Shown here: positions 3,940-59,039 of the stretch, in pieces
How positions within the stretch are numbered: the first letter of the stretch is position 1
How the letters are laid out: each line of letters begins with the position of its first letter
Assembly: GCA_024137785.1 (NCBI GenBank)
Contig: JAHRHZ010000111.1
Location: 16,562,509 to 16,626,508, forward strand
From: Ginglymostoma cirratum
Lineage: Eukaryota
Direction: 5' to 3'
Length of the DNA: 64,000 nt
Position numbers and translations under genes: made by a program
The notes under the pieces: generated by a model
Seen by the model: the letters and a program-made list of their open reading frames with translations, nothing else
Databases searched by the model: none
Told to the model about the DNA's origin: nothing

Positions 3940-4905
3940 TATGTGAGGAAAGTGTAAAGTGGCTTCAGGAGGATTTGGACAGGCTTAGCGAGTGGGCAAA
4001 AAGGTGGCAAGTGAAATATCATGTGGAAAGATATAACGTAACCATTTTGATAAGAGGAACAGATGCGCAGAGTATTTCTTAAATGGTTGAAAATTGTAGA
4101 TGTGGGAAGGAACCAAGTTGTCCTTCTCAATACATCAGTGAAGGTTAACATGCAGGTGCAGCAAACTATTGGGAAGGTTAATAGAATGTTAGGTTTTATT
4201 ACAAGAGGATTTGAGTTTAGGAGGAGTGAAATCTTGTTTCCGTTTTATAAGTGCATGTTTAGACTACATCTGGAGTATGTGTGCAGTTTTGATTTCCTTC
4301 TTACTGTCGTAAAGGGAGTGCAACAAAGATTAACCAAACTTGTTCCCAGAATGGTAGAATTATGCAATGGAGAGAGATTGGGCAAACTGGGCCTACATTC
4401 TCCAGAGTTTGGAAGAATAGAGGTATTATCATTGATGCCAACAAAATACTTAAAGGGATAGACAGGGTAGATGCAGGTAAGATGATGAGCCTGTAATAAG
4501 GGGGATGCCATTTTGGACCAAGCTGAGGAGAAATCTTTTTACTCAAAGTGATTGTGAAGCTTTTCAATTCTCCACCACATAGAGCTGTGGGAACTCAATC
4601 TTTAACTATATTTAAAGTAGAGGTTGATAGGTTTTTGATTACCAATGGCATTAGACTAATGACAAACATGTAGGTAAAAGAGAGTTAATAGGAACTGCAG
4701 ATGCTGGAGAATCCGAGATAACAAGGTGTAGAGCTGGATGAACACAGCAGGCCAAGCAGCATCATAGGAGCAGGAAAACTTGACGTTGATGAAGGGCCTA
4801 GACCCTTCATCAGAAAAGAGAGTGATGAGTTTGATCAACCATGATCATATTAAGTGGTAGAGTGGGTTCGAAGGGCTTAACAGTCTATCCCTGTTCCTTT
4901 GTTCA
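3940..4905 (+). mobile_element. CR1 LINE 3' portion (decayed), interrupted by a family-A insert
   Basis: ORF 4063-4461 contains KVNRMLGFITRGFEFR..FRLHLEYV..VQQRLTKLVPRM..ERLGKLGLHSPEFGR, typical of CR1 ORF2. CR1-type 3' UTR follows to ~4905. Confidence 0.9.
4686..4813 (-). mobile_element. Family-A Penelope-LTR-like short insert with mutated hammerhead; 10-bp TSD
   Basis: Near-identical to 11322-11416 and similar to 57789-57913. AAAAGAGAGT at 4676-4685 and 4814-4823. Minus strand reads CUGAUGA-AGGG-UCUAGG-CCC-UUCAUC-AACGUC. Confidence 0.8.
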
Positions 4906-7760: not shown

Positions 7761-9699
7761 CTAAATTGTGCTTCAACTTGAGAGACAGAATATTTTGGAC
7801 TTAGTCCGTGCCAGACTGATGTGTCTATATTTGGGACAGGAATCCAGTTAGCTGTGGCTTTCTTATTCAGCTAGAACATTAGGATCCTGTCTCAATCAGT
7901 GCCTCCCCCACTATTAGCTAATGTGACCCAATTTTAATTCCTGAAAATTTAATGTGATCTCCCAGTGTTATCAAAAACAAAACAGCAATAAAGCAGCATA
8001 GCAATATTCAGTATATAGCTATTAAAACATACAAATTAAAGATCTCTCCTATGCCTAGAAATGCACATGCCAGGATCTGCTTTTGTAGCTAGTTTTTTAC
8101 CCCTGGAATAGGACTAGCTGCCAGTGGCTATGGCATGCCTGGCATATGCGTGTTAGAAGAACTTACCAACAGCTAATCAATCTGTTTGGTTGTGACTGTA
8201 CCTTCAATGGTCATCAAGTCCTGGGGTCAGCCTGAACTTGGAGCTTCTGACACAGAGATAGGTATGCTACCCATAGTTCCACAATTACTGTCAAAACACA
8301 GAATTTCATGAAATATCAACATGAAAACCTGAGTTTCTAAAGTACTTGTAAAAATGTTATTTTATAAACTCGTGTAGGTTTTGGCCAAAATTTCCATCTT
8401 CTTCAGTGACAGCAGATTCAATGAAGCCCCTCTGCTTCACTCAGCCTGACACACATGCCTCTCAGGCCGATCCCTCTTCCCCAAATTGATTGCTTACTCA
8501 CCAGCCCCTCTCCCCTTGCCATTGTCTAAGAAGTAGAATGGCTATCCTGGATTCAGGAGCATATACTTTAGGCAAGCAGGAGCAGAAACATGTTCCTGTT
8601 TGAAGCTGCCTCTCACTTTCCTAGCTGAGCTATGTGTCCACTTGATTCTTTTTCTGCACCTAGTTAAACTTGTTAAACTTGAATTAAACTTGTCAGCTTT
8701 TTCCACGCACTGAATCGGTGCATAAAAGGACAGGACCCATGTTGCATTCACTACTGAAGGTCTCCTCTGACGTTAAAGGATGCTTTGGGCTCATTGTTCA
8801 CCTCCTTCAGTTTGACTACACCCAGTGCATCCAATCCCAGCCAAGACTGGGCAGTTTCCTCTCCCACAGCCTCTGAGGAGGGGCAGCTCACTGCCCCAAA
8901 TGTGATCTCTGCGCTCCCCCATCACGGGTCATAACCCATATTTTGGGAAACAACTGATCCAAAATAAAATTGTCCGACAGCTCCAGGGAAGTTTTCCATT
9001 CATTTTTGATCAGACTTCACAGAAAGCCAGAAGAGGGTCCGAGATCCGGATTCAATGTCAACTCAAGTGGATTTATCTTGCTGTACTCACACAAATCTAC
9101 CTCCTCATGTCTGGAAAATCTCCCCACCACAATCCCTTCTATGCTTCAAACAAGAGGTAGAGAGATCTCTGCAAGTGTGGCACTATGGGACATTCTCATC
9201 GTGCAAAAATAGCCACTAAGCACAGTCTTGACAGTTAACTGTGTATTGCAGATGGTGATGGCACTGAAAGAGTTAATGTTAAATTTGAATTAGCTCTGCT
9301 CAGTCTGATGATTGGTCTATTGGTTGAGGCAGGGAATTCTGCACTAACCTTCCTAAGGAGAGAGTGTATTCTGTATAGCTCCTGTGAGCCCTTGTAATTA
9401 TGCCTGACATGCAATATATTTGTTTATTGTATGATAGCAATAAGTGCTGTCTGGTTAAGTAAGAACAGTACCACTTCTGTGAAGACCTTATAGTCATGTA
9501 TCTGTAACCAGTGAACATTAGAGATGCCCAAGATGAGGAAGAAACAAAGGAATATTGGTGGCTCTGAACTACCCCCAAATAAACCTTACTCTGAATCACA
9601 TAATGGCTGATGCTGCGAGGTGCCAGTAGTGGCAACCATACTATCAATCTAGCCTTTATTTCTGAGTTGTTAGTAATTTCATTCTAACTGCAATCAAAT

Positions 9700-10380
9700 T
9701 GCTTTACATTGACTTTTATTGCCACCACTGATGTGACTATGACAATGATAAACTATAGCTCCTCATCCTTCTCAACCTGTGCAGCCTTTGATATGGTTTA
9801 TCATGCTACATTCCTACAATGCTTCTTCTTTGTGGATAAGACTATTCTTGTCTGATTTAATCCTTATATATTCAGTAATAACCAAATAATTATTTGCAAT
9901 GACTTGTCTTCCTACTACCTCATGGTTACCTCTAGTGTCCTCAATGATCTATCCTTAGCCCTCTCCTATTTCTCATCCATATGTTGCCCCCTCAGAGATA
10001 TCATCCAAAAGTACAACATCAGTTTTCATAGGGTCACTGAGGATGCCTAACCTCTCACCATCAGTTCTCTCTGTTCCTCATTTGCCTCTGCAATTTCAGG
10101 CTGCTTGTCTGACATCCAGTGTATGATGAGGTGAAATTTCCTCCAACTAACCAGCAAAAAGATGAAGCAAGTCACTTCTCATCTGACTATAAACTACCCC
10201 CTTGTCACCGATTCTATCCTTTTCAACCAGCAACTCTCTGATGCTGAACCAAATCACAGCTTGGCACTGTATTTCACCTCAACGTATGCATTGGCCTCAT
10301 GTATCATGTAAGCATTAAAGCTGCTCATCTCCTCCACCATGTCATTACCCCTGCCTCAGCTCATCTGCTGCTGAAATCTT
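9700..10380 (+). mobile_element. L2-clade LINE reverse-transcriptase fragment (decayed)
   Basis: Frameshifted translation gives LLILLNL/AAFDMVYHATFLQ (cf. LLDLSAAFDTVDH) and SILSPLLFLIHMLP (cf. QGSILGPLLFLIYMLP). Confidence 0.8.
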
Positions 10381-10780
10381 NNNNNNNNNNNNNNNNNNNN
10401 NNNNNNNNNNNNNNNNNNNNNNNNNNNNNNNNNNNNNNNNNNNNNNNNNNNNNNNNNNNNNNNNNNNNNNNNNNNNNNNNNNNNNNNNNNNNNNNNNNNN
10501 NNNNNNNNNNNNNNNNNNNNNNNNNNNNNNNNNNNNNNNNNNNNNNNNNNNNNNNNNNNNNNNNNNNNNNNNNNNNNNNNNNNNNNNNNNNNNNNNNNNN
10601 NNNNNNNNNNNNNNNNNNNNNNNNNNNNNNNNNNNNNNNNNNNNNNNNNNNNNNNNNNNNNNNNNNNNNNNNNNNNNNNNNNNNNNNNNNNNNNNNNNNN
10701 NNNNNNNNNNNNNNNNNNNNNNNNNNNNNNNNNNNNNNNNNNNNNNNNNNNNNNNNNNNNNNNNNNNNNNNNNNNNNNNN
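10381..10780. other. Assembly gap (400 N)
   Basis: Run of N characters. Confidence 1.
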
Positions 10781-11321
10781 TTCTTAATTCCTCATTCTGT
10801 TAATGACGTAGTGATCCCAAGGTGTATCTGATGGTCTACAATTTGAGAGGTGCTGGTCTGACACCAGAGAGTGAGAACTGATCTGCAAACATAGAGGGAA
10901 TGGTTGGACTGGCCAATGAAGAATGGTTGGGAGATGGTAGTTGGTATTGAACAAGGAAACCAGGCTTGTGAGGGGATTGGAGGGGACACTGTTGCTCCTC
11001 AGGGAGTGATCCCATAGGAATTACTGTAAAGACATGTCAACTATCTGAGTCTGTCCTCTCTTCACTGTAGCTGACCGGGAGGGGGTAACCTTCGTCAAAT
11101 TTTCACACCTAAGTAAAGTCAGGTTGTCAGGAAATTGAAGTCTGTTGTCTGACATTTTTCCATTTCATTACCCATTTGAAATCTGATCCTCACCTAATTC
11201 CACCTTTGTTTCTAGTTATAAAGCTACTGATCCCTTATCCTTTAAAGGCTTGTCAAAACTTATTCTGACCACCCCTCCACCCCCTGTGTCTTGATTCCTG
11301 CACAACATTTATAATTGTATC

Positions 11322-11416
11322 AGAGATAACAGGAACTGCAGATGCTGGAGAATCCGAGATAACAAGGTGTGGAGCTGGATGAACACAGCAGGCCAAGCAG
11401 CATCATAGGAGCAGGA
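11322..11416 (-). mobile_element. Family-A short insert, truncated before the hammerhead core
   Basis: GAGATAACAGGAACTGCAGATGCTGGAGAATCCGAGATAACAAGGTGTGGAGCTGGATGAACACAGCAGGCCAAGCAGCATCATAGGAGCAGGA is almost identical to 4682-4776. Confidence 0.85.
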
Positions 11417-11459
11417 TACCTGATTGATTGTTTCTCCCCTTTCCTTGCCAAGTTGATCA

Positions 11460-11760
11460 TGTGGATAGAGCGGAGAAGCTGGAGCTGACTGACAGTGAAG
11501 TTTAATGGGAGATTTAAGAGAGGTGCTCAAAATCATGAAAGACTTTGACAGTATCTGGAAGGAGTAGCCTATAAGGTTGCTGGCAGCAGATTCAATCATA
11601 ATTTTCAAGAGAGAATTGGATAAATAGTTGAAGGGAAAAATTGCACAGGCTATAGGAAAGGATGGTAGTCTGGGACAAATTGGATAGCTTATTCAAAGAG
11701 CCAGCACAAGAGTACATGCTTAAATATTTATCTTCTGTGCTATATATTTCTATGAAGCTA
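11460..11760 (+). mobile_element. CR1 3' end fragment
   Basis: GGGAGATTTAAGAGAGGTGCTCAAAATCATGAAAG (GDLREVLKIMK) followed by a CR1-like 3' UTR ending TTCTATGA. Confidence 0.65.
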
Positions 11761-12902
11761 AGCTAATACTATTCAGCAATTGTCAGCTTTGTTATTTATA
11801 TTGTTGTGCTTACCTATGTCCATTATTTCATATTTGCAAATCTTGCTGATTGCAATTAATCAGCAATGTTTGATCCTCCAAATTGGTCATTTGTCTTATT
11901 TGAATGGATATGTCAAAGCCAGAGAACTAATTGCTCTCAATTTTGATTTATGCTGATTTCATATTATCTCCCAAAAATCTAGTTTGCAGACTGGTTACAG
12001 ATTTCATTCTGTGTTTTGAGGCACAAATTAGAGATTTCAAGTAGCCCTGTGATTAGTAAAAAGTAAAACAGTAGGAGTTGAGAAATTGTAGAATAATACT
12101 AAGCTTTATTCTGTCAGAAAAAGAACGAAGGGAACATTTGGGGATTGTGTCTGAAAGCTGAGTCCTTTTCAAGCAGTGAGAAAGTCATTCCCATGACTTC
12201 AGGGATCATTTTAATTGATTGCTTTCAGTCTCTTGCTAGTTTGTGGCATGAAGTTACCACATAGACATTTTCAATTTTTGTACAGGATTTTTTATTGGGT
12301 CATGGCTCAGAAGAACAGAAGTTCTATTTCCTCCTCAGTATGACAGAAGAAAAAAAATGGAGCAGCAAGTATTATGTACAAATGAACAGCTTAACTACTT
12401 CATCAAATAGATGGAGATTGGGCGAGAGTTCTTAGTCCTCCAAGCAGTGACAAAGCACTCTCTTTTGAAGTTTTAGTTAACTTTGAAAGTCTTCAGCCAA
12501 CCCCAGGATATGCTGTTTTAATTTAAAGATGAACAGCAATAATTATTTGTAACTTTAAATGTTTATCCTTTTCAAAAATACTGTCTCCAGTTATGTGACT
12601 TTTCATGTTCTGTAGCACTAAGTGTATGATAATTTGCAAATATGCATCACATAAAATCAACAAGATTCTGATTTTCAATTTCTACACTGTCCATTCTTGT
12701 AGTGACACTTCAGTTTGGTCTTAATCAGTACAAAGTAATAAGCATGTGGTTTAAATCTATATCCAAAAGAATTTGGGGTGTAGGAGATGAAAGTATTTAA
12801 AATAATTTCACTTCGTTTTGTTTGGAGCCGAAAATTTAAAGTCTTGATCCATCTAGGTTGAAAAATAGACAGAACGAATGAGAAATTGTGTTGACTCAAA
12901 GG

Positions 12903-13020
12903 TTTTGGAGTAGATCTGTAGCTCAGTTAGTGGGTGTTGAGGTTGGTTGGCTCGCTGAGCTGGTTTGTTGTTCCGCAGATGTTTCGTTACCGTGCTGGGT
13001 GACATCCTCAGTGCAGCCTT
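12903..13020 (-). mobile_element. Family-D Penelope-LTR-like fragment carrying a hammerhead motif
   Basis: GC-richer ~120-bp island in AT-rich DNA that ends in the hammerhead motif at 12973-13016. The Penelope link is inferred from the minimal-HHR architecture. Confidence 0.55.
12973..13016 (-). ncRNA. Minimal type-I hammerhead ribozyme motif (core intact)
   Basis: Minus-strand RNA: CUGCA-CUGAGGA-U-GUCACC-CAGCAC-GGUAAC-GAAA-CA-UC-UGCGG. Helix I CUGCA/UGCGG (5 bp, one G-U), helix II 5/6 bp, A15.1-U16.1 pair, AUC cleavage triplet. Confidence 0.7.
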
Positions 13021-14144
13021 GAGGCAATATTATACTACATTGCTAAAAGCAATTTTATAACTCCATTTACTTCCAAAAATACAGTATTAAAGTCTGCTAA
13101 TAAATGGGATCCTATTATGAAGTATTTAACTGAATTTTAAAGACGTATCAGGACCTCTTTTCATTTGCTCAATCAAATGGTATGACGCCATTGGGATAAC
13201 CATACCAATACTGCCCCAGTTCCATTGACATCTATGTCTCAATTTTTTTTCATGGAAATAAACAATTAATCAGGCAGCTTTTCAGGGAGACAAACAGGCA
13301 AATACATATTAGGCATGAGCATTTATTCCAATACTAATTGGTTTCATGTAACATTGATATAAGTGACCAGTCAACTCACAGCTTTCAATTATTTTTGGAG
13401 GTATTCCCATTTCTTAGTATAGTTGCGTTCTAGTTTATAAAACTAAATTAAGTGTAAGCCAAAATGTTCATGCATATAGTTACTCACTGCTAAATAATCA
13501 GTTTTAAAGCTCAATGATGAGGATTTCAAGAGAATCCTTTATTTTTAAAGCCACAAACAATCTGAGGAGCAGTCAATATTAGAATGTATGTACTGGCAAA
13601 TTGAGAAAAGAAAAGTTATATGAAGGTAATTGCAAATGGAATAGCGTAGACAATTTAGAATGCCATACAATATTTACCAAATGATTGTGAATGGTCTAAT
13701 AATTCATGAGTGACATAATCAGTCCCTCATGACAAAAGCATTGAAAAATATAATCCTTTCTGACATTAAAACATTTGGGATCTTTCTAATCAGCATAGCA
13801 TGAATAAATTATTTCCTGAGGGTTCATAAGGATATGAAAAAAGCATCATTTATTATGGGACAGTGCTGGTGAGATCACCGGTAATGATGAATTAGCCATA
13901 TAACATTAAACACAATGAAGGAATCGTTAGGAAATGTAATAGTTATTGAATTAATGCAGGTTATAAATTACAATTACAAACTTTTTCCAATTGAATATGA
14001 AATGATATGTTTGTGATGCTTGACCTTTATTGACCTCATTATTGTATCTTCGCATTATTATTCTATAAAGATGTTTTGAATATTAATGCTTCCTCCTCCT
14101 GAACAAGCAATAATGTTACTGTACATATAAGTTATTCTAATTTA

Positions 14145-14260
14145 AATAAAACAAAGAATGGATACTGGAAATCTGAAACGAAAATAGAAATTGCTGAAGA
14201 AACTCAGCAGGTTTGGTAGCAACTGTGGAGAGAAAGTCGAGTTAACATTTTGGGTCCTGT
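14145..14260 (-). mobile_element. Family-B Penelope-LTR-like fragment (older relative of family A)
   Basis: GATACTGGAAATCTGAAACGAAAATAGAAATTGCTGAAGAAACTCAGCAGG...GTGGAGAGAAAG...GTTAACATTTTGGGTCC. Similar to 39740-39830, 53340-53445 and 57375-57460. Confidence 0.6.
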
Positions 14261-14299
14261 AAATTATTCTAATGTTTAGCAGTCTTCTCTATCTTAGTT

Positions 14300-14560
14300 A
14301 GAGAGTCATACAGCACAGAAACAAGACCTTCAGCCTACCATGCCTTTGCTGACAAACAAGCATCAAACTACACTAATCTCATTTACTTGCAATTAGTCCA
14401 TAGCCGACAGTGCCCTGGCTTTTGAATGTTGCAAGAGTATTTTTATACACCACCTTTTCAGGCAGCACATTCTATCTATCTACTCCCCTCTGGGTGTAAA
14501 CAAATTCCTCATATCTCCTCTAAGCCACTTACTCCTCACCTCAAATCACCTCAGGTATGG
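14300..14560 (-). mobile_element. CR1 3' UTR fragment
   Basis: AGAGTCATACAGCACAGAAACAAGACCTTCAGCCTACCATG parallels the CR1 tail at 32241-32300. Confidence 0.65.
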
Positions 14561-14994
14561 CAGATGTCTAAGACTGTTGATTTTAGTTTAAACTATATTG
14601 ATCACCTATTGGCTCAGTGTACCATTGTCTACATCAAATGTTATTTCCTCCTCATCCATTTGTACCCCATAAATCCAGATCGCTCTTATGATAATTTTCA
14701 TAGCTTTCTATCCTTGTTGCAACTACTCTGACCGTAAGCTCCCTTATGATTCTCTACTGTTAGTTCTTTTGAACTCTTAGCAAAATTCGCTTCCAAACTT
14801 TTAGCTTCTACATGATGTTTTCATATGATTACTGTTGATTAACTTACTTTTGCCTCAGGCATTGCCACAGTTGTACTTGTGTTTTTCATTGTTACAGTTT
14901 TGATATACTCGTGAGTGATAATATTTTGAAGCAGTGAATATTTTCTTTGCTTTATTTGTGTTTTTGCCACTGGTAACGTTGAGGAAAAAAGTTA

Positions 14995-15220
14995 TACGTC
15001 AGCCATTGCTTAACATCTCTGAGTCTGAAGGTGCTGAATTTGTGTCTTAATACAAGACCTTAACCATATACATATTACGCCTGATTCTCCAGTGCTGAGG
15101 GAGTTCGGCACTGTCAGAGTTGCCATCTTCCAAACTGAGATGTCAAACTAACGTCTAATCAGCTTTTCTGGGCAAACATAAAAGACTCCATCACTAATTT
15201 GAAGATGAACATGTGAATAT
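14995..15220 (+). mobile_element. Decayed Deu-domain SINE
   Basis: CTCCAGTGCTGAGGGAGTTCGGCACTGTCAGAGTTGCCATCTT...GAGATGTCAAAC...TAAAAGACTCCATCACTAATTTGAAGATGAAC matches the Deu-type core seen at 59060-59180. Confidence 0.6.
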
Positions 15221-15444
15221 TGATACTGTCTCTCTGTGACATACTCATAAAATTTACATTATCTTTTGAGAAGAATTAGCTGTCATAGTGTTGAACAGCT
15301 TTTACCTTCTTCTGTGATGCAAACTTAATGTCTAGAGACTCAGTTGGCAAGTTATCACCATGGTTATCTTTTGTTTCCTTCTCTTCCTCGTGTGGCTATC
15401 TCTCACATCTTGTAATTTCTTGTACACCTTCTACAACGTAAATC

Positions 15445-15515
15445 AGTAAAATAACTTCAAAGGTTAAGATTAAGGCATGACAGGATAACTTCGCCAAGTG
15501 GAATGTCTGTCCTGG
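15445..15515 (+). repeat. 71-bp dispersed duplicate of 16510-16580
   Basis: 66/71 identical by manual alignment. Confidence 0.9.
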
Positions 15516-16499
15516 TCTGTTAACATACATTACAAGTGTTTTGATAAAGACTTCAAACTTATTAAATTTCTTTTGCTTTGAAACTTTTTATCATCTTCTG
15601 TAAAGCTTCAAAAGCACTTTATAACTTCTCTTAATCTTCTAACTTTTTTCGAAAACTTCCCTTGAAACCTTCAGATTTCAATGGGTAAAATACCACCTTT
15701 AAACATTTTCAGTTTCACCAAGGAATAGTAGCATCATATGGCCATAACTGAACTGACTGAAACATATTCAAAAGCCAGAACAAACAAGTTCATATTTCTA
15801 TTGCTATAGGTCTCTTAATTCTTCTGAAATCCATCCTAGGCCTTGCCCTTCCCTATCTCTATAACCTACTCCTACAACCCTTTTAAGACTTAGCTACTCT
15901 TACAATTTTGACCTCTTGCATATTTGTAGCTTTAATCTTTAGACTTTCAATAGATTAATTCCTAAACTCTGGACTTGTTTCCCTTAAAACTCTGCTCCAC
16001 TTTACCTGATTGCTTCCTTTAAGGTACTCCTTTAAATTCTATCTATTTGACCAAAGCTTTCAGTCTATGGAACAAATTTTGTTTAATAACACTCCTGAAA
16101 AGTGCACTGGGGCATTGAAATATGCAATATAAATCCCATGTGTAGTTGGATGTTTTTCTTCTTCCAGTCAGCTGATATCTAAACATCATGTTAATTATGT
16201 AAATGGTCATACAAGGTTCTTCTTAGCTTGATGACCATCTTTAACCAGAGTTTGGAAAAGTGACTGATGGGTCAGCACAGGGAAGTCATGAGTTATTTGA
16301 TTGTTGATTAGCTACAGCTGGGATCTCAGTTTCACGTCAGTAATTTTAATAGACATAAATTTCTAAGCTAGCACAAAAGTAAGAATTTATTGACATAGGA
16401 AAGGGAGCTGATTTGACAACAAGGGCAAAAATTTTCTGCTAATTTCCCATTTATACTTAATACTGCCAGGCCAAAGTTAAAGTAGGTTAAAATGCTTAA

Positions 16500-18600
16500 A
16501 GTTAAAGCAAGTAAAATAACTTAAAAGGTTAAGATTAAGGCATGGCAGGATAACTCAGCCAAGTGCAATGTCTGTCCTGGGGCATGTGAGCGATCATGGA
16601 TACTTCTTATGACCCTAGTCCTATAAGTATCACTGGTGGTACATGTTTGAGGTCCAGATTTCAGAGCTCAAGAAAATGCAGTCACTGAGGTAGATATTCA
16701 CTGATAGAGAATAGTAAGTTAATAGGTGGAGTCAGAGTAAAGGAGAAAGTAACAAAGTCTGATTTGGGGTTACAATGTGTGTGAATGAATGCATAGAATA
16801 AAGTTGATAAGATCAAGAAGCTACAGTATGCAGTGCCTTGTGTGATTATCGTGATGTGGTGCTAATGGAGATCCAGCTTGAGGAAGGTGGGATCTGAGTG
16901 TTAACTATTCCTAGTGACAAGGTGTTCAGAAAAGATAGGAAAGGAAAGGGAAAAAAAGAGGAATTTGACATTTTTAGTTAAGGAGAATATTGCATGTTGA
17001 TGAGAAAGAATGTTTCAGTGGGTTTAAGGACAGAAACAATTTGGTTTTATCCAAGGAATACGTAGGGTAAAATTACATTGGCCAGCATAATACGCGTCCT
17101 TTCCAATTGCTGGTGGTCAATAGAGTAACAAAACTGCAAAAAAATGTAAATATTATAGACTAGTTATTACGAAGGACTTTGGTTACTTATATATTAAAAA
17201 ATGGGATAAAGGGGCAGCAAGGGGCAAGGGGAGAAAGATTTGACAGAAGTGCGTGTACAGTCCAGCAAGAAAGGAGGGACGGCCAGATCTGATTTTTGGG
17301 AATGAGGTACTTGAAGTAGATCAAGTGACAGTGGGGGAACCATTTAGGGTACAGTGATCATTTTATAATAAGGTTTAGCAAGACTCTGGTAACAGACATT
17401 GGTCATTTAAGGAATGACTGAGCAAATTGCAGAGATGATGACAATAACCTTTCAATCTTCCTTGGATTCAGGTGTGGAGGATTGGAGAATTACAAAAATT
17501 GTTCAAAAAGTGTTATAAATAGCAGCATAGTAGTTACATATCTATCAGGCTAACTTCAGAAGTAGGTAAAGTTCTACAAACTGTTATTCGCTCAGAATTA
17601 GTAGTTACATGGATAAGTATGAATTACTTAAGAAAAGTCAGCATACATTTGGAAAATAATGTGTAACTAAATTGCTCATTCTTTTACAGTCAATGAGGGC
17701 AAGGTTATTTATGTGACGTGCATGGACTTCCAAAGGCATTCAATGCAGTGTTGCACAACAGACCAGTGAGGAAACTTATAAGTCACAAAATAAAAGGGCC
17801 AAAAAATGTGTAAATAAAATTTGCTGAGGGATTGGAAACAGTGTATTGGTTAATCGATATTTTTTGTGCTGGAAGAAGGTTTGTAGTGGAGCTTCACAGG
17901 GGTTGGGTTTGAGACTCTGGCTTTTCCGGGAATATATTAATAATCTGGATCTTTGTGCGTAGGAGACAATTTCAAAGTGTGCGATGACACGAAACTTGAG
18001 AGAATGTAAAACTTCAACAAGGCTTTGGCACGGTGATGGAGTTGGCAGATAGGTGGCAGATGAAGCTCAATATAAAGAAGTATGAGGTGATAACTTTGGT
18101 ACAAAGAACATGGAGAAACAGTATAAACTAAAGGGTATTATTCTAAGGGATGTACAGGGAGAGTAAGACCTGACTGTACATGCACATAAGTCATTAAAGG
18201 TGGCAGGATAGGTACAGGACAGTTAATAAAGCAAATAATAATCTATGTTTCATAAATGGAGGTATAGTGCACATGTGCAAGGATGTTATGATAAACTGGT
18301 ATAAGGCATTGGTTAGATATCAGCTGGAAATTTCTGTGCAGTTCTGAGCATCACATTTCAGGAAGGATCTGATTGCATTGGAGAGAATACAGAAGACGTT
18401 TATGAGAATAATTCCAGGGATGAGACTGTATTATATTAGCGAGGAAAGATTGGAGTAAATAAGGCGATTTTCATTGGAGAGGAGGAAGCAAAGGGCTAAT
18501 TTAATAAAAGGTTTTCAAAGGCACGAGTAGTCTGGAGAGTGTGTTTAGGAAGAAACCGTTCCTGCTCACAAACACATCAGGAACCAGAGGACAGAATTCT
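16500..18600 (+). mobile_element. Long, internally deleted, decayed CR1 LINE (ORF1 start, endonuclease, RT)
   Basis: MAG*LSQVQCLSWGM at 16542 (CR1 ORF1 start). GLQCV*MNA*NKVDK at ~16768 (endonuclease start). MDFQ/KAFNAVLH at ~17722 and KCA/DDTKL at ~17975 (RT). CR1 C-terminal motifs at 18300-18520. Confidence 0.85.
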
Positions 18601-19649
18601 AAAGCATTCCTTGCTCTGACACACACTCATCATTGTCAAGATATGGGAATAATATGATCATCAAAATCTAGTTGTAGTTGTTTTAATTGTTGAGGTAATC
18701 ATTTAATTTTGAGGTAAACATTTACTTTAACATACAAATTACTTTGAAATATTAATGTATGTAACTGATGCACCATTGTTATTTCTTGTGGAAGAAATGT
18801 TTTTGTGTGGTTAGATCCAACATATTGAAAAACTTAACATTATGAAAATAATTTCAACAGAAGAACACTTAGGAGAGAATATTAAGCACAATTTATGTTT
18901 CAAAATTATCCCAAATTATCTCCTACACAGTAATGAGACTGAGCAGAACAAAATGATTGCTAATTATAACATTGCTAAATGGTTAATTTTGAACATTTTT
19001 CAAAGCTTTCATATTTCTGAGTTGATCTAAGCAGCTTCACTAATATGAGCAAAAGTCTGCTTCAAAAAAGAATGATGTAAGCCACAAGTGCAAATGGACT
19101 ACTCATCCTTATTAAAGCTGTTCTGAGAACTTCTACCCATCAAAAATGGGTTAACATATGTTGGCGTTGAATTAAGAAAACAGGCATATGTTTGTTAAAG
19201 TCATGAATGATAAATTGACACAGAATAACATAGCAATGGAAGTGATTCACTTATTCAATGTGATTTGTACTGGTGAACTTCTCGAAATTTGACTCTAGAG
19301 TTTTACAGCAGAACCTGAAGGGATTATTACTGAGTGACATTTTGCTAACTATATGTTGTAGGCACATCACAATGTAGGGAGAGGGGGATGAGATTGAGAT
19401 CTGCATTGGGAATTCCTATAACAAGTTTGTTAAAAATCCTCTGATGAGCCCTATTTGATCCCAAAGATGGACTGACATATGTTAAATTGAATTACAAATT
19501 TCTGACACAGAGTTGTTTTCAAAAGGGATATTAAGTCAGTTGATTTACTATATATTGCATCATTGAATGGGTAAGTAAAGCCTAATAGGCATCCATTCTA
19601 TACATACGCTTCAGCAGTGACAGGGCAGGACTGTGATGAGACCACAACT

Positions 19650-19862
19650 AGAGTAATGTGTGCAATTTTGTCTCCTTATCTGAGAACGGATGTTCTAGTT
19701 ATGGAGAGAGTGCAACAAAGATTTTCCAGGCTGGTTTCTGGGCTGACAATACTGACATATAAAGGGAAACTGGATTAGATAGGGCTATATTCATTAGAGT
19801 TTAAAAGAATGAAGGGGTATTTCATAGAAACCTATAAAATTCTTAAATGGACTAGACAGGAC
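19650..19862 (+). mobile_element. CR1 ORF2 C-terminal fragment
   Basis: VQFCLL...MERVQQRFSRLVSG and GLYSLEFKRMKGYFIETYKIL-like translation. Confidence 0.75.
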
Positions 19863-20350
19863 AAGTAGAGAGCTGGTGCAGTTTTTTCAGTATATGTATC
19901 AATGTTTACCATTGAACATATCAATAAAGAATGATATTGCATTGGCTTTATAGAGTAATGTTATAGTGACCAGCACATCTAGTAATCCCAAGGATTGCCC
20001 ACTGATGGATATATCAGGCGGAAACAGTCTCAACCTATGCTGCTGATCTCAGTGTCTGAACTGTGCTCTGCACAGTTGGTTCTCAATGACACCTTGAACA
20101 GACGATTTAATACATGGTTGACTTCTCCTATCGAATGATCTGCTCCAAATGTTAGTCCTTTTGAAAATGATAGTTCTTTTATTTTGCTTTGTTTAAAATG
20201 CTGGTGATCATTATGCTGTTCAGCCGCACAATCAAAAAATCATGATTAAATGTATGGATAACTTGTAAATGCTAAAAATGTGAAGAAAAATATGGATAGT
20301 GCAAGAAGCATGCAGCAGGTCAATCATAAGGAAAAAAGACCACTTGTATT

Positions 20351-55188: not shown

Positions 55189-57788
55189 ATGAATACTATG
55201 ACACTTCATGTGCTCATCCAAATACTTTTTAAAGGTTGTGACACTTCCCACCTCAATTAGTCTCCCAGGTAGTGCATTCCAGATTCCTGCCAGTCTCCAG
55301 GTGAAAAAACTGGGGTTAGAGAATTCGGCAATAAGCTCCAGAATAAAACCTGCGACTTTCCCTGCTCTGGGTCTCCCTCCCCCAACTCCAGTCAGCTTGG
55401 ACACAATCATGTGACCCATTACAATTCTCTCCCTACCCTTCCCCTTATGCCACACCTGGCATTTATGATAGTAGTTGAGGTCATTCTTGAGGCAAAGCCT
55501 CATTTTCATCCTTATACTTTTTTCTCATTCCCAGATGGGAACGTGTCTTACAGGGTACGACTAAGCTAGGGAGTTAAATTTCCGTCAGCCTAATGCTGAC
55601 ACTTTCAGGTACCTTTTCCATTCACCCTGCTACCCTTATCCCACTCACACTGAGTTGGGTCTTAACCCCCTTAATTACAGAAACTTTTTGTTTAGCATTT
55701 GGTGAACAAGTCCTATCTTCACATGGTAGAGTTTCATATTGTGCTGAATTTTATAGTTTAATTGAAGCATTATTGTCACGTGTACTCAAATACAGAAGTG
55801 CAGGAGTTCAGTGAAAAGTGCATAATGTCGCCATACACATAATGTTACTGAGCTGAAAGATTCCACGTATCATTGCCCTAATGAATTCTTCTACCTTTTA
55901 GATTCACACTATTTTTTACTTTTAGCATCTAAATGAGAGTTATCCTTAAACATTCCTCATTGTTTTAAATTCAAGCTTTGATCATAATCGCCTCCTTTAA
56001 CTCACTGAAACTGAATACAAACCCTCTTCTTTATTGTATCATTAACATTTTTATTCCACTTCATTTCCTAAAAGAAATGAAATCTCAGGATTCCCTATTG
56101 CACTCATTGACTATTCTGTTAGTAGCCTGTGCATTTTCTATCAGATCGAACATTGCTGTGATGGTTATACAGTATCTTTAGTAATGTTCCTTTTTTTTGT
56201 ACTCAGGGAGGCTATTTTCAGCATGTTGTAATCAAGATGATCTGATTACTGGCCATTTCTGATTCTCTCTTCCCAAAATCGGATCAGAGCTGTCAAATGA
56301 AATACGTTGTTTTTCCAGGCTGCTGGAATTGGGAAAAAAAATCCTCAAGCTTAATTTTCATTTACTTACGCTGTTCTGTCTCTCCCAATTGCAATGAGAA
56401 AAATATTCAGCGATCTTACACTTGCACGCGATTGTTCTTCAAACCTTGTTAAAAGGTTTGCCTCACTCTATAATTCTGTACAACATTTCTGTTTACCCTA
56501 TTTGTCATGAAACAAACTGTATTTTGACAAATGCCTCAAAGCAAGGCAGTTGAATTTACTTTTGTTCAGGCTTTTTTTTTCAAGTATTTTTCAGTATGTT
56601 TGGGTTGACATTGTATTGTTTACAAACTTATACTAAATTCAAAATAGGCTATGATAATATTGATCATTAAAGTTACAGTTGCTGGGCAAATTAATAAGGA
56701 GTTTGTTAGCAGAAAAAATAGATTATCATTAGAGTTTGAAGATTGTTATGGAGGCATAGTGGGTGGAGACTTGGTAAATTTTATCCTTACCTGAATGGGA
56801 ACAGATAATCATCCCCTTTGAAACTATTGATTACACATTCAACACAAATCTTAGAATAGTGATCCATACTATATTTTAAAAAATCACCCTGCGATTGATT
56901 TGCCAATCTAAAACACAGGGCTGTGATCATCCATCTGACAGGTAACTGATTCCAGAATTCATTTCAACATCAGAAATCCATCAAGCAACTCACATCTGTA
57001 TGATAACATTCTTATTCCAGTGAAACAGATCATTCTCTCACTTACCATGAGAACATCAAGAGAAAATTCATTAGTGAATATGGGAGAAGAATTCTTAAGC
57101 AGTAACTTAGAAGGAAAGAAAGCGACTTGCATTTTTGTGGTAATTTTCATCATCACCAAGCATCTCATTGCGTTTTTACTCAAAGAGGTAATATATTTTG
57201 AAGTGCAGTCAGTGTTGTAATGTAGGAGATGTGGCAGCCGATTTGTGCAGAGCAAACGCACACAAATGGCAATGAATTACTGAATACAGTGATATGCTGT
57301 CATGTGTGATTTTTCAGCAATGCTCAAGCTCTGTGCAAACGAGAAACAGCACTGAAATAAATAAAAGCAAAGTAGTGAAGATACTGGAAACCCGAAATAA
57401 AAGTAGAAAGTGCTGGAGAAACTCTGGCACATTTGTGGAGAGTGAAATAAAATTAATATTTTATGTCTGTTATGATTTGTTTTGGGGCCCACAATGATAA
57501 TTAGATAATCTGTTCTTATGATTTTGATTGAGTGATAAATATTGGCTGTTGCCCTTGGGATAGCTCCCAAGCTGTTCAACACATGCTGACCTTTTATATC
57601 CACCTAGGACTGGGCCTTAGTTTAACATCTCTTTTCGAAAACACAAAAGGAGGCTGGTGGCATAGTGGTGATGTCACTGAATTAGTAACCTGGAGGCCCA
57701 GGATAATGTCTTTGGGGCATAACACCACCTGTTAACAAATGTCCTTAAAGGAAATCTGCTGTCCTTACCCGGTCTGATCTATATTTGA

Positions 57789-57913
57789 GATAGTAGGAAC
57801 TGCCGATGCTGGAGTCTGAGATAACCAGGTGTGGAGCTGGATGAACACAGCAGACCAGGCAGCATCAGAGGGGCAGGAAAGCTGACCTTTCGGGTCTGGA
57901 CCCTTCTTCAGAC
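57789..57913 (-). mobile_element. Family-A short insert with 10-bp TSD
   Basis: CTATATTTGA at 57779-57788 and 57914-57923. Body homologous to 4686-4813. Confidence 0.85.
57883..57912 (-). ncRNA. Minimal hammerhead ribozyme motif at the family-A terminus
   Basis: Minus-strand RNA: U-CUGAAGA-A-GGGUC-CA-GACCC-GAAA-G-GUC-A. Core and helix II intact; helix III palindrome mutated (AGGU); helix I mostly lost at the insertion boundary. Confidence 0.55.
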
Positions 57914-59039
57914 CTATATTTGATCCCAGCCCCAGTGTGATGACTCTTAATTCTTCCTCTTAAAGAGCTGAACGAAATACTTGGTTCACAAGAGCAATCA
58001 GGGACAGACAGCATATGCTGGTCTTGTCAGGGATACATCCCGTGCAAGAATAAAACCAAAAGTAACTTCCTCAGTGCTGCACTGGAGGTCTCGGCCTTGA
58101 ATTGTTTTTTTGCTCAACTCCTTGAGTGTGTTTCTTGTGATGCAGAGACCAACTAATTCATAGCCAGCATTTAAGCTGAACTGAATGGGTGCTACTTGAA
58201 CACATTTTCCCCCAAGCCTGTCTCAGCGAAAATCTTGAATCATTGAGGGAGCTTGCGGTTTCTTGACCTGCTCACAGACATCACTGGTCTCTGGTTGAGG
58301 GTGCCAGACAGGATAATATGCCAGATTCAATCCAACGACTACAAAAGTTTGACAATTGGTTGACAATTGCCATCGAAGTAAATGGCAACATACTTCAACA
58401 TCTATGAGACCACAAGCAGAAGTCGGCCATTTGACCCATTTTGTTTGCTCCACCATTTGCCTTTGCTGCAAAATGCACATCATTGCTCGTCTCAGATCAT
58501 TCATTAACAAAAATGTGGAGCATCTAGTTGTTTTATATCTTATCATGACATTTTAGAAAGTAATGTGCTATTTTATAATTCAGTGCATTAAAAAAGGGAA
58601 TAGCTTGAATAATTGCACAAGTTATATCATCAATAACCCTATTTACGTAAGAGTTCTGCTATTTAGTTTTTCAAAGGCAACTTTGTTATCTTGTATTAAT
58701 CTGTTAAATTGGCTTGATTATTTGAAGTGGCGGATGTCAGTTGACATAAGGGTGGTTTTGCAATACGGCTTTCTGGTATTTATGTTTACCAACATTAAGA
58801 TCACACAGCTACACATAATGAATGCATAACCAATTCATTATTAACTAAGTCCTTTAAAAAAGGAAATATCTGATTAAATCCAACATTGAATGCTACAGAT
58901 ATAAACAGGTATGTTTTCAAAATAATATGTTAGTTTTTGTAATTATGTCTTACTTGCAAGAGAACCAGTAATTATTTTCAATGCTGTGCTGTACTAATTT
59001 TGGTTCCCAATGTCAATAACATGGATTCAAGGCATGACT

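Follow-up and report, generated by a model that had tools for sequence, protein, structure and literature searches.

Minus-strand positions 13016-12973 of the window (the whole 64-kb stretch of Ginglymostoma cirratum DNA analysed here) spell out a minimal type-I hammerhead ribozyme, which the original prediction held to be nearly intact and able to cut any minus-strand transcript crossing the locus. This raises the question of whether the segment is a working ribozyme, possibly one put to use by the host, or a remnant of the mobile element to which such motifs belong. We conclude, with a probability of about 0.9, that it is a fossil, namely the 3'-terminal 121 bp of a Penelope-like element (PLE) of the Penelope/Poseidon type, decayed neutrally and most likely neither cleaving nor serving the host. 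Hammerheads in the end pieces of PLEs have been described before, in fish and reptiles, and the locus itself is one decayed copy among thousands, with at least 962 better-preserved ribozymes in the same genome. Scan hits of this kind in shark-like genomes are to be filed as PLE ends.

Table 1. Minus-strand features of the hammerhead and of the element fragment that carries it, in window coordinates
Feature	Position	Strand	Basis or remark
5'-truncated 3'-terminal PLE fragment, 121 bp	12899..13019	-	genome matches, copy ends
Minimal type-I hammerhead motif with two lesions	12973..13016	-	sequence, descriptor scan, fold energies
Helix I	13016-13012 with 12977-12973	-	5 pairs, one of them U-G
Core C3-A9	13011-13005	-	read directly
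U4-G5-A6, stop codon of the upstream RT/GIY-YIG ORF in long copies (...HQRLH*)	13008..13010	-	frames
ATG (A9, extra U, G10.1), putative ORF start 2 nt past the stop	13003..13005	-	frames; same place as in anole PAc
Extra U after A9	13004	-	read directly
Helix II with 6-nt loop	12986..13003	-	strands 13003-12998 with 12991-12986, 5/6 pairs; mismatch C13001-A12988 is a rare lesion
G12-A14	12985-12983	-	read directly
Mini helix III, A15.1-C-A-U16.1 (ACAU)	12979..12982	-	ACGU in the family; CpG decay gave A12980
C17 and predicted scissile bond	12977..12978	-	break between 12978 and 12977; 28 nt from the A of ATG, inside codon 10
PLE ORF, its first 35 codons, open at the element end	12901..13005	-	frame read; tandem copies L056 and L057 carry it on into the ORF
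AC-rich loop closed by a 7-bp stem	12920..12961	-	predicted fold; resembles the stem-loop where PAc starts reverse transcription and may act likewise
Optional PLE tail, 36-38 nt, between the two 3' ends of the family	12899..12936	-	+69/+71 and +107 from ATG

The hammerhead motif and its lesions

Positions within the motif follow hammerhead numbering. Read directly, the minus strand agrees letter for letter with the sequence quoted in the original prediction and carries all core bases in register. The minimal hammerhead (min-HHR) core of C3-U4-G5-A6-N7-G8-A9, G12-A13-A14, A15.1-U16.1 and H17 is present both in the window copy and in the majority of its family. The motif is closed by a helix I of five pairs, within the 4-5 bp of min-HHRs, and helix II starts with the G10.1-C11.1 pair after an extra base behind A9, with 5/6 pairs in the window copy and 6/6 in the family. 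Core, helices and cut position (12978/12977) thus stand as predicted. The palindrome at 15.2-16.2, from which dimers build helix III, is present in the family (ACGU) and lost from the window copy (ACAU).

Both strands of the window were scanned with a loose and a strict hammerhead descriptor, and 300 dinucleotide-preserving shuffles served as the null. The motif at 13016-12973 was the single match; shuffled windows gave 0.06 matches per window with the loose descriptor and none with the strict one. Rfam returned no hammerhead at gathering score in the whole window and none at E ≤ 10 in 12800-13200, and the 44-mer folds no better than its shuffles (z 0.37). Both the silence of Rfam and the ordinary fold energy fit a hammerhead form without helix III. 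The segment is a genuine hammerhead ribozyme motif.

The claim that this copy lies one mutation from the active state fails, since two changes separate it from the family ribozyme. Besides ACAU, helix II has acquired a C-A mismatch: its first strand reads GUCACC in the window against GUUACC in the family (17 versus 1,487 exact genome matches), and the TTA of this helix is kept in 50/53 copies reached through the reverse transcriptase (RT). The calculated energy of helix II is -1.5 kcal/mol in the window copy versus -6.0 kcal/mol in a natural intact copy (L051), and that of the helix III self-duplex is +2.8 versus -3.1 kcal/mol. In the lowest-energy fold, which is not a hammerhead, GGAUGU pairs with ACAUCU and ties up core bases. 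Helix I still has a pairing probability of 0.5-0.66 and the core bases are intact, so the fold model allows that the copy may retain trace activity.

The repeat family and its parent element

The original prediction had proposed to judge the motif by a genome-wide consensus of 12903-13020 and by its linkage to RT and GIY-YIG reading frames. Searched with 12880-13040, the genome (4.36 Gb) gave 3,850 first-look candidates, so the segment is high-copy rather than single-copy. Of these, ~40 were scored; their matches span only ~13019-12899, and the best copies other than that of the window are 91-95% identical to it over the same ~121 bp. In public sequencing runs, loose ends accumulate at 12899 and 13019, as expected from the ends of the fragment. 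Compared with the majority of 16 aligned family copies, which keeps the core, perfect helices and the ACGU palindrome, the window fragment shows seven differences. As to helix covariation, the copies come from near-identical masters and differ by decay; other helices surround the same core in PAc, a Poseidon element of Anolis carolinensis, and in a second repeat family with its core at 57911 of the window.

Upstream of the ~121-bp stretch, other copies extend by very unequal lengths into GIY-YIG and RT frames on the same strand. As the original prediction held, the motif is a minimal type-I hammerhead of a PLE. An inverted partial copy often adjoins the longer copies. When the genome was queried with the RT, the best 150 of 11,532 candidates were scored, and 20 long loci, picked for long open frames, displayed partial tandems and inversions. 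The family thus has the partial tandems (pLTR) and inverted 5'-truncated copies of PLEs. Five partial copies (L035, L039, L047, L063 and L067) start no more than ~15 nt upstream of the core, like the window copy, in a set whose filter favoured such copies. No target-site duplication is visible by eye at the junctions of the window fragment. Contigs of a related organism, with flanks ~4% different, reach 25 and 27 letters from unique flank into the element, below the bridging bar of 31 letters, and give a weak hint that the insertion is old and retained.

A 671-aa frame in L051 matches RVT_1 (PF00078) with an E-value of 4.8e-11, and direct reading shows a C-terminal motif of GIY-YIG type, with two Cys and His residues (the Pfam GIY-YIG match is weak, E 0.027). 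The frames of L057 and L051 overlap at 82% identity and combine into an uninterrupted ORF that starts with the tail peptide and ends at the core TGA, giving a parent unit of about 2,489 bp (~2.49 kb) with a single ORF of about 828 codons. The distance from tail to next core is 2,208-2,399 bp in the seven distinct tandem loci listed, and 2,391-2,399 bp in five of them. A single ORF with RT and C-terminal GIY-YIG therefore characterizes the family and was lost from the window copy by truncation. The peptide that the window still encodes matches the flatworm PLE protein P0004 at its N-terminus, with 11/22 residues identical (pairwise E 2e-5).

In the L051 frame the linker between RT and endonuclease contains three scattered Cys and, from YVDD to the endonuclease, no CxxC or Zn-finger-like Cys motif. 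Such a motif is present in Neptune and Nematis (PMC8557442), and its absence from this linker sequence points to Penelope/Poseidon rather than Neptune. Protein relatives were sought with L051:3703-5715 (minus); 8,000 candidates were scored and the best 120 listed. PLE proteins of Chiloscyllium punctatum and Stegostoma tigrinum are 64-67% identical to the L051 frame, those of Dicrocoelium, Clonorchis and Schistosoma 52-56%; no clade name is attached to any of these proteins. Outside sharks, the best named relatives come from parasitic flatworms, with no other vertebrate among the 120 matches listed, a likeness that could be due to database bias or to old horizontal transfer. Cercyon-type PLEs are listed for Clonorchis and Schistosoma (PMC4209133).

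The family closely resembles the min-HHRs that Cervera and de la Pena (2014, PMC4209133) described from the pseudo-LTRs of metazoan PLEs. Both have the type I form, a helix I of 5 bp and a helix II of 6 bp, the extra base between A9 and G10.1, the G10.1-C11.1 pair, the palindrome at 15.2-16.2 and dispersed single copies, thousands of them, that stem from truncated PLEs. The window copy differs from these min-HHRs in lacking the palindrome and one helix II pair. One supplement file of that paper contains no shark entry.

Tandem units join inside the hammerhead core

In 61/71 copies long enough for the comparison, the core triplet U4-G5-A6 lies in the reading frame of the endonuclease motif (it is out of frame in the other 10/71), and 38 of the 61 in-frame copies have no intervening stop. 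The L051 frame is closed by the TGA in the core of the following hammerhead. Head-to-tail units thus join inside the hammerhead: the core UGA closes one ORF and an AUG two bases on opens the next, so that tandem units have no UTR between them. Core position N7 varies among genome matches, being G, U and sometimes A or C. Besides the UGA-GG-AUG junction there are N7=U variants that read UGAUGAUG and have an overlapping in-frame AUG; this form, TGATGATG, makes stop and start overlap and supplies two in-frame AUGs. A database relative, P0005, likewise begins with two Met.

PAc (Frangieh et al. 2024, PMC11167929) shares with the family the CUGAGGAUG and GAAACGUC core motifs, an RT with C-terminal GIY-YIG, and an ORF AUG at the start of stem II, the cut falling 26 nt past the start codon in PAc and 25 nt past it here. 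In PAc a UTR of 126 nt precedes the AUG, in contrast to the family, whose ORF crosses helix I to terminate at the core UGA; the helix sequences also differ. The literature searched, including PMC11167929, PMC8557442 and PMC13725137, does not show the stop-in-core layout, though Repbase/Dfam, subscription papers and some supplements may hold it.

This layout invites the tentative idea, which we regard as rather doubtful, that the hammerhead core doubles as a translation junction where translation and self-cleavage gate each other. If so, a ribosome that has finished one ORF would reinitiate on the next, unfolding the ribozyme in passage, and cleavage in codon 10 would sever the start codon from the downstream unit. 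With a stop and a start that both lie in the catalytic core, the family provides a compact test of such cross-control.

Decay, cleavage and competing readings

The prediction that ACAU arose from palindromic ACGU by CpG decay is confirmed by exact genome counts with a 22-base pattern of hammerhead variants. ACGU is in the majority with 566 matches, and the two possible transition products, ACAU and AUGU, are about equally frequent (139 and 146). The same picture emerges from 53 copies that were found through the RT and hence not selected for likeness to the window ribozyme. In this set the CG/TG/CA counts for helix III, C11.1-G12 and loop II are 29/10/9, 28/9/11 and 25/11/8, respectively, the rest being other letters or unread. 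Replacement of G12, the catalytic base of the hammerhead (PMC6155905), by A has 116 exact matches in the genome. The catalytic base has been struck by CpG decay about as often as other sites, which implies that inserted copies are not under selection to cleave; family copies decay neutrally.

These data bear on the reading from which we started, that the locus holds a near-active ribozyme which cuts minus-strand host transcripts and was possibly co-opted by the host. In its favour are the complete core, the 5-bp helix I and the hint of an insertion shared with a related organism. Against it stand the two lesions with their competing fold, the family-wide neutral decay that includes G12, and the 962 genome places where core, helix II and ACGU are all intact, next to which the window copy is not special. 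According to the literature, single minimal motifs showed no cleavage in vitro and dimers were cleaved poorly (PMC4209133), and in the anole element PAc, the only relative tested, the ribozyme depended on the protein for cleavage (PMC11167929). The descriptor scan and a small repeat library built from fetched loci reveal no second copy of the family in the 64-kb window. With no same-family partner in the window, published monomers inactive and PAc dependent on its protein, the claim of transcript cutting is unsupported and unlikely, the lone window copy probably does not cut, and we regard this reading as highly improbable.

Does the family cleave in vivo? A pattern at the predicted cut had 10 genome matches, 4 indels and 6 junctions; two of the junctions seem to go back to a single duplicated event, which leaves 5 independent. 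A control 7 nt upstream of the cut had 2 matches, both junctions, and one 4 nt downstream had 7, namely 1 junction and 6 indels; the patterns differ in sensitivity and all counts are tiny against >1,400 copies. Every copy that starts at the predicted cut (L073, L075-L079) adjoins inverted element sequence, four in tight fold-backs, and these junctions might follow run-off at a cleaved RNA end. The excess of junctions at the cut is a weak hint of cleavage by the family in vivo. That cleavage usually sets the 5' ends of insertions can be rejected, given 6 junctions at the cut versus >1,400 copies. For PAc, no reads end at the cut site, and cleavage is dispensable for insertion in vitro, where catalytic mutants still insert (PMC11167929).

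An equally improbable alternative is that the fragment is the monomer of a non-autonomous retrozyme and not a truncated autonomous PLE. Animal non-LTR retrozymes share with the family a type I hammerhead, descent from PLEs and large numbers of monomers, and short hammerhead monomers akin to PLE ends occur in vertebrates, one cartilaginous fish included (bioRxiv 10.64898/2026.07.22.740005). However, retrozymes are short non-coding units of fixed length in tandem arrays, whereas the family consists of variable truncations of a coding element: relatives run upstream by variable lengths directly into coding sequence, the locus has no tandem array, and its 3' end is a standard PLE end.

Still another possibility, which we consider remote, is that ACAU marks a subfamily spread by its own active master, transposition tolerating or even using ACAU. 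The 139 exact copies and the insertion of PAc catalytic mutants would suit it. Yet AUGU is as frequent as ACAU, as independent deamination on either strand predicts, and CA and TG are balanced among RT-anchored copies; this symmetric decay leads us to reject an active ACAU subfamily. Finally, a chance match to the descriptor, as the silence of Rfam and the unexceptional fold might suggest, is negligibly probable, being refuted by the strict scan of shuffled windows, the family majority with perfect helices and palindrome, the intact copies in the genome, and a core and AUG position as in the tested PAc ribozyme.

A decayed PLE end thus remains the preferred reading, and its 3' side fits PLE biology. 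Copies end at +69 or +71 in 16/64 matches and at +107 in 29/64; in two public runs the loose ends cluster at 12899, 12935 and 12937. The two 3' ends, 36-38 nt apart, bound an optional tail of the 30-40 bp known from PLEs. PAc likewise has two 3' ends 30-40 nt apart in an AC-rich stem-loop, with the distal end at +111-118 versus +107 here (PMC11167929). Where most family copies have G-C, the stem at 12920-12961 has A-U, a double change made up of two CpG transitions that may be coincidence.

The most likely history of the fragment is as follows. Judging from relatives, the parent RNA would be a tandem or partial-tandem transcript, and the element protein, priming on nicked AT-rich DNA, would start reverse transcription at one of two sites near the AC-rich stem-loop. 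The copy ends and the biochemistry of PAc suggest that for the window copy it began at the distal 3' site (+107) and halted just beyond the hammerhead. The parent ribozyme, like its published relatives, was presumably weak and most likely cleaved only when helped by a second copy and/or the element protein. After insertion, neutral decay added the CpG transition in helix III and the transition in helix II, and the copy has no partner nearby.

The description of the region as repeat-poor holds in part. The library covers just 3-9% of 8001-20000, but other repeats match 11309-11424 and 14150-14383. Neither a host gene nor a transcript came to light in the region. None of the 123 stop-to-stop frames of ≥72 aa in the window matches Pfam at E ≤ 0.001, a search that short exons would escape, and no 1-kb bin of the window has a CpG o/e above 0.41. 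Two runs guessed to be RNA cover the repeat only and not its unique flanks, and so count neither way. A run of N, standing for withheld or unassembled bases, lies at ~10380-10780, 2.1 kb from the motif. The second repeat family is represented by an end fragment at 57781-57919 (minus) with a hammerhead-like core at 57911, different helices and a non-palindromic mini helix III that reads AGGU. At 11309-11424 there is a related piece that lacks the core, and 4669-4819 yields matches with the same hit count.
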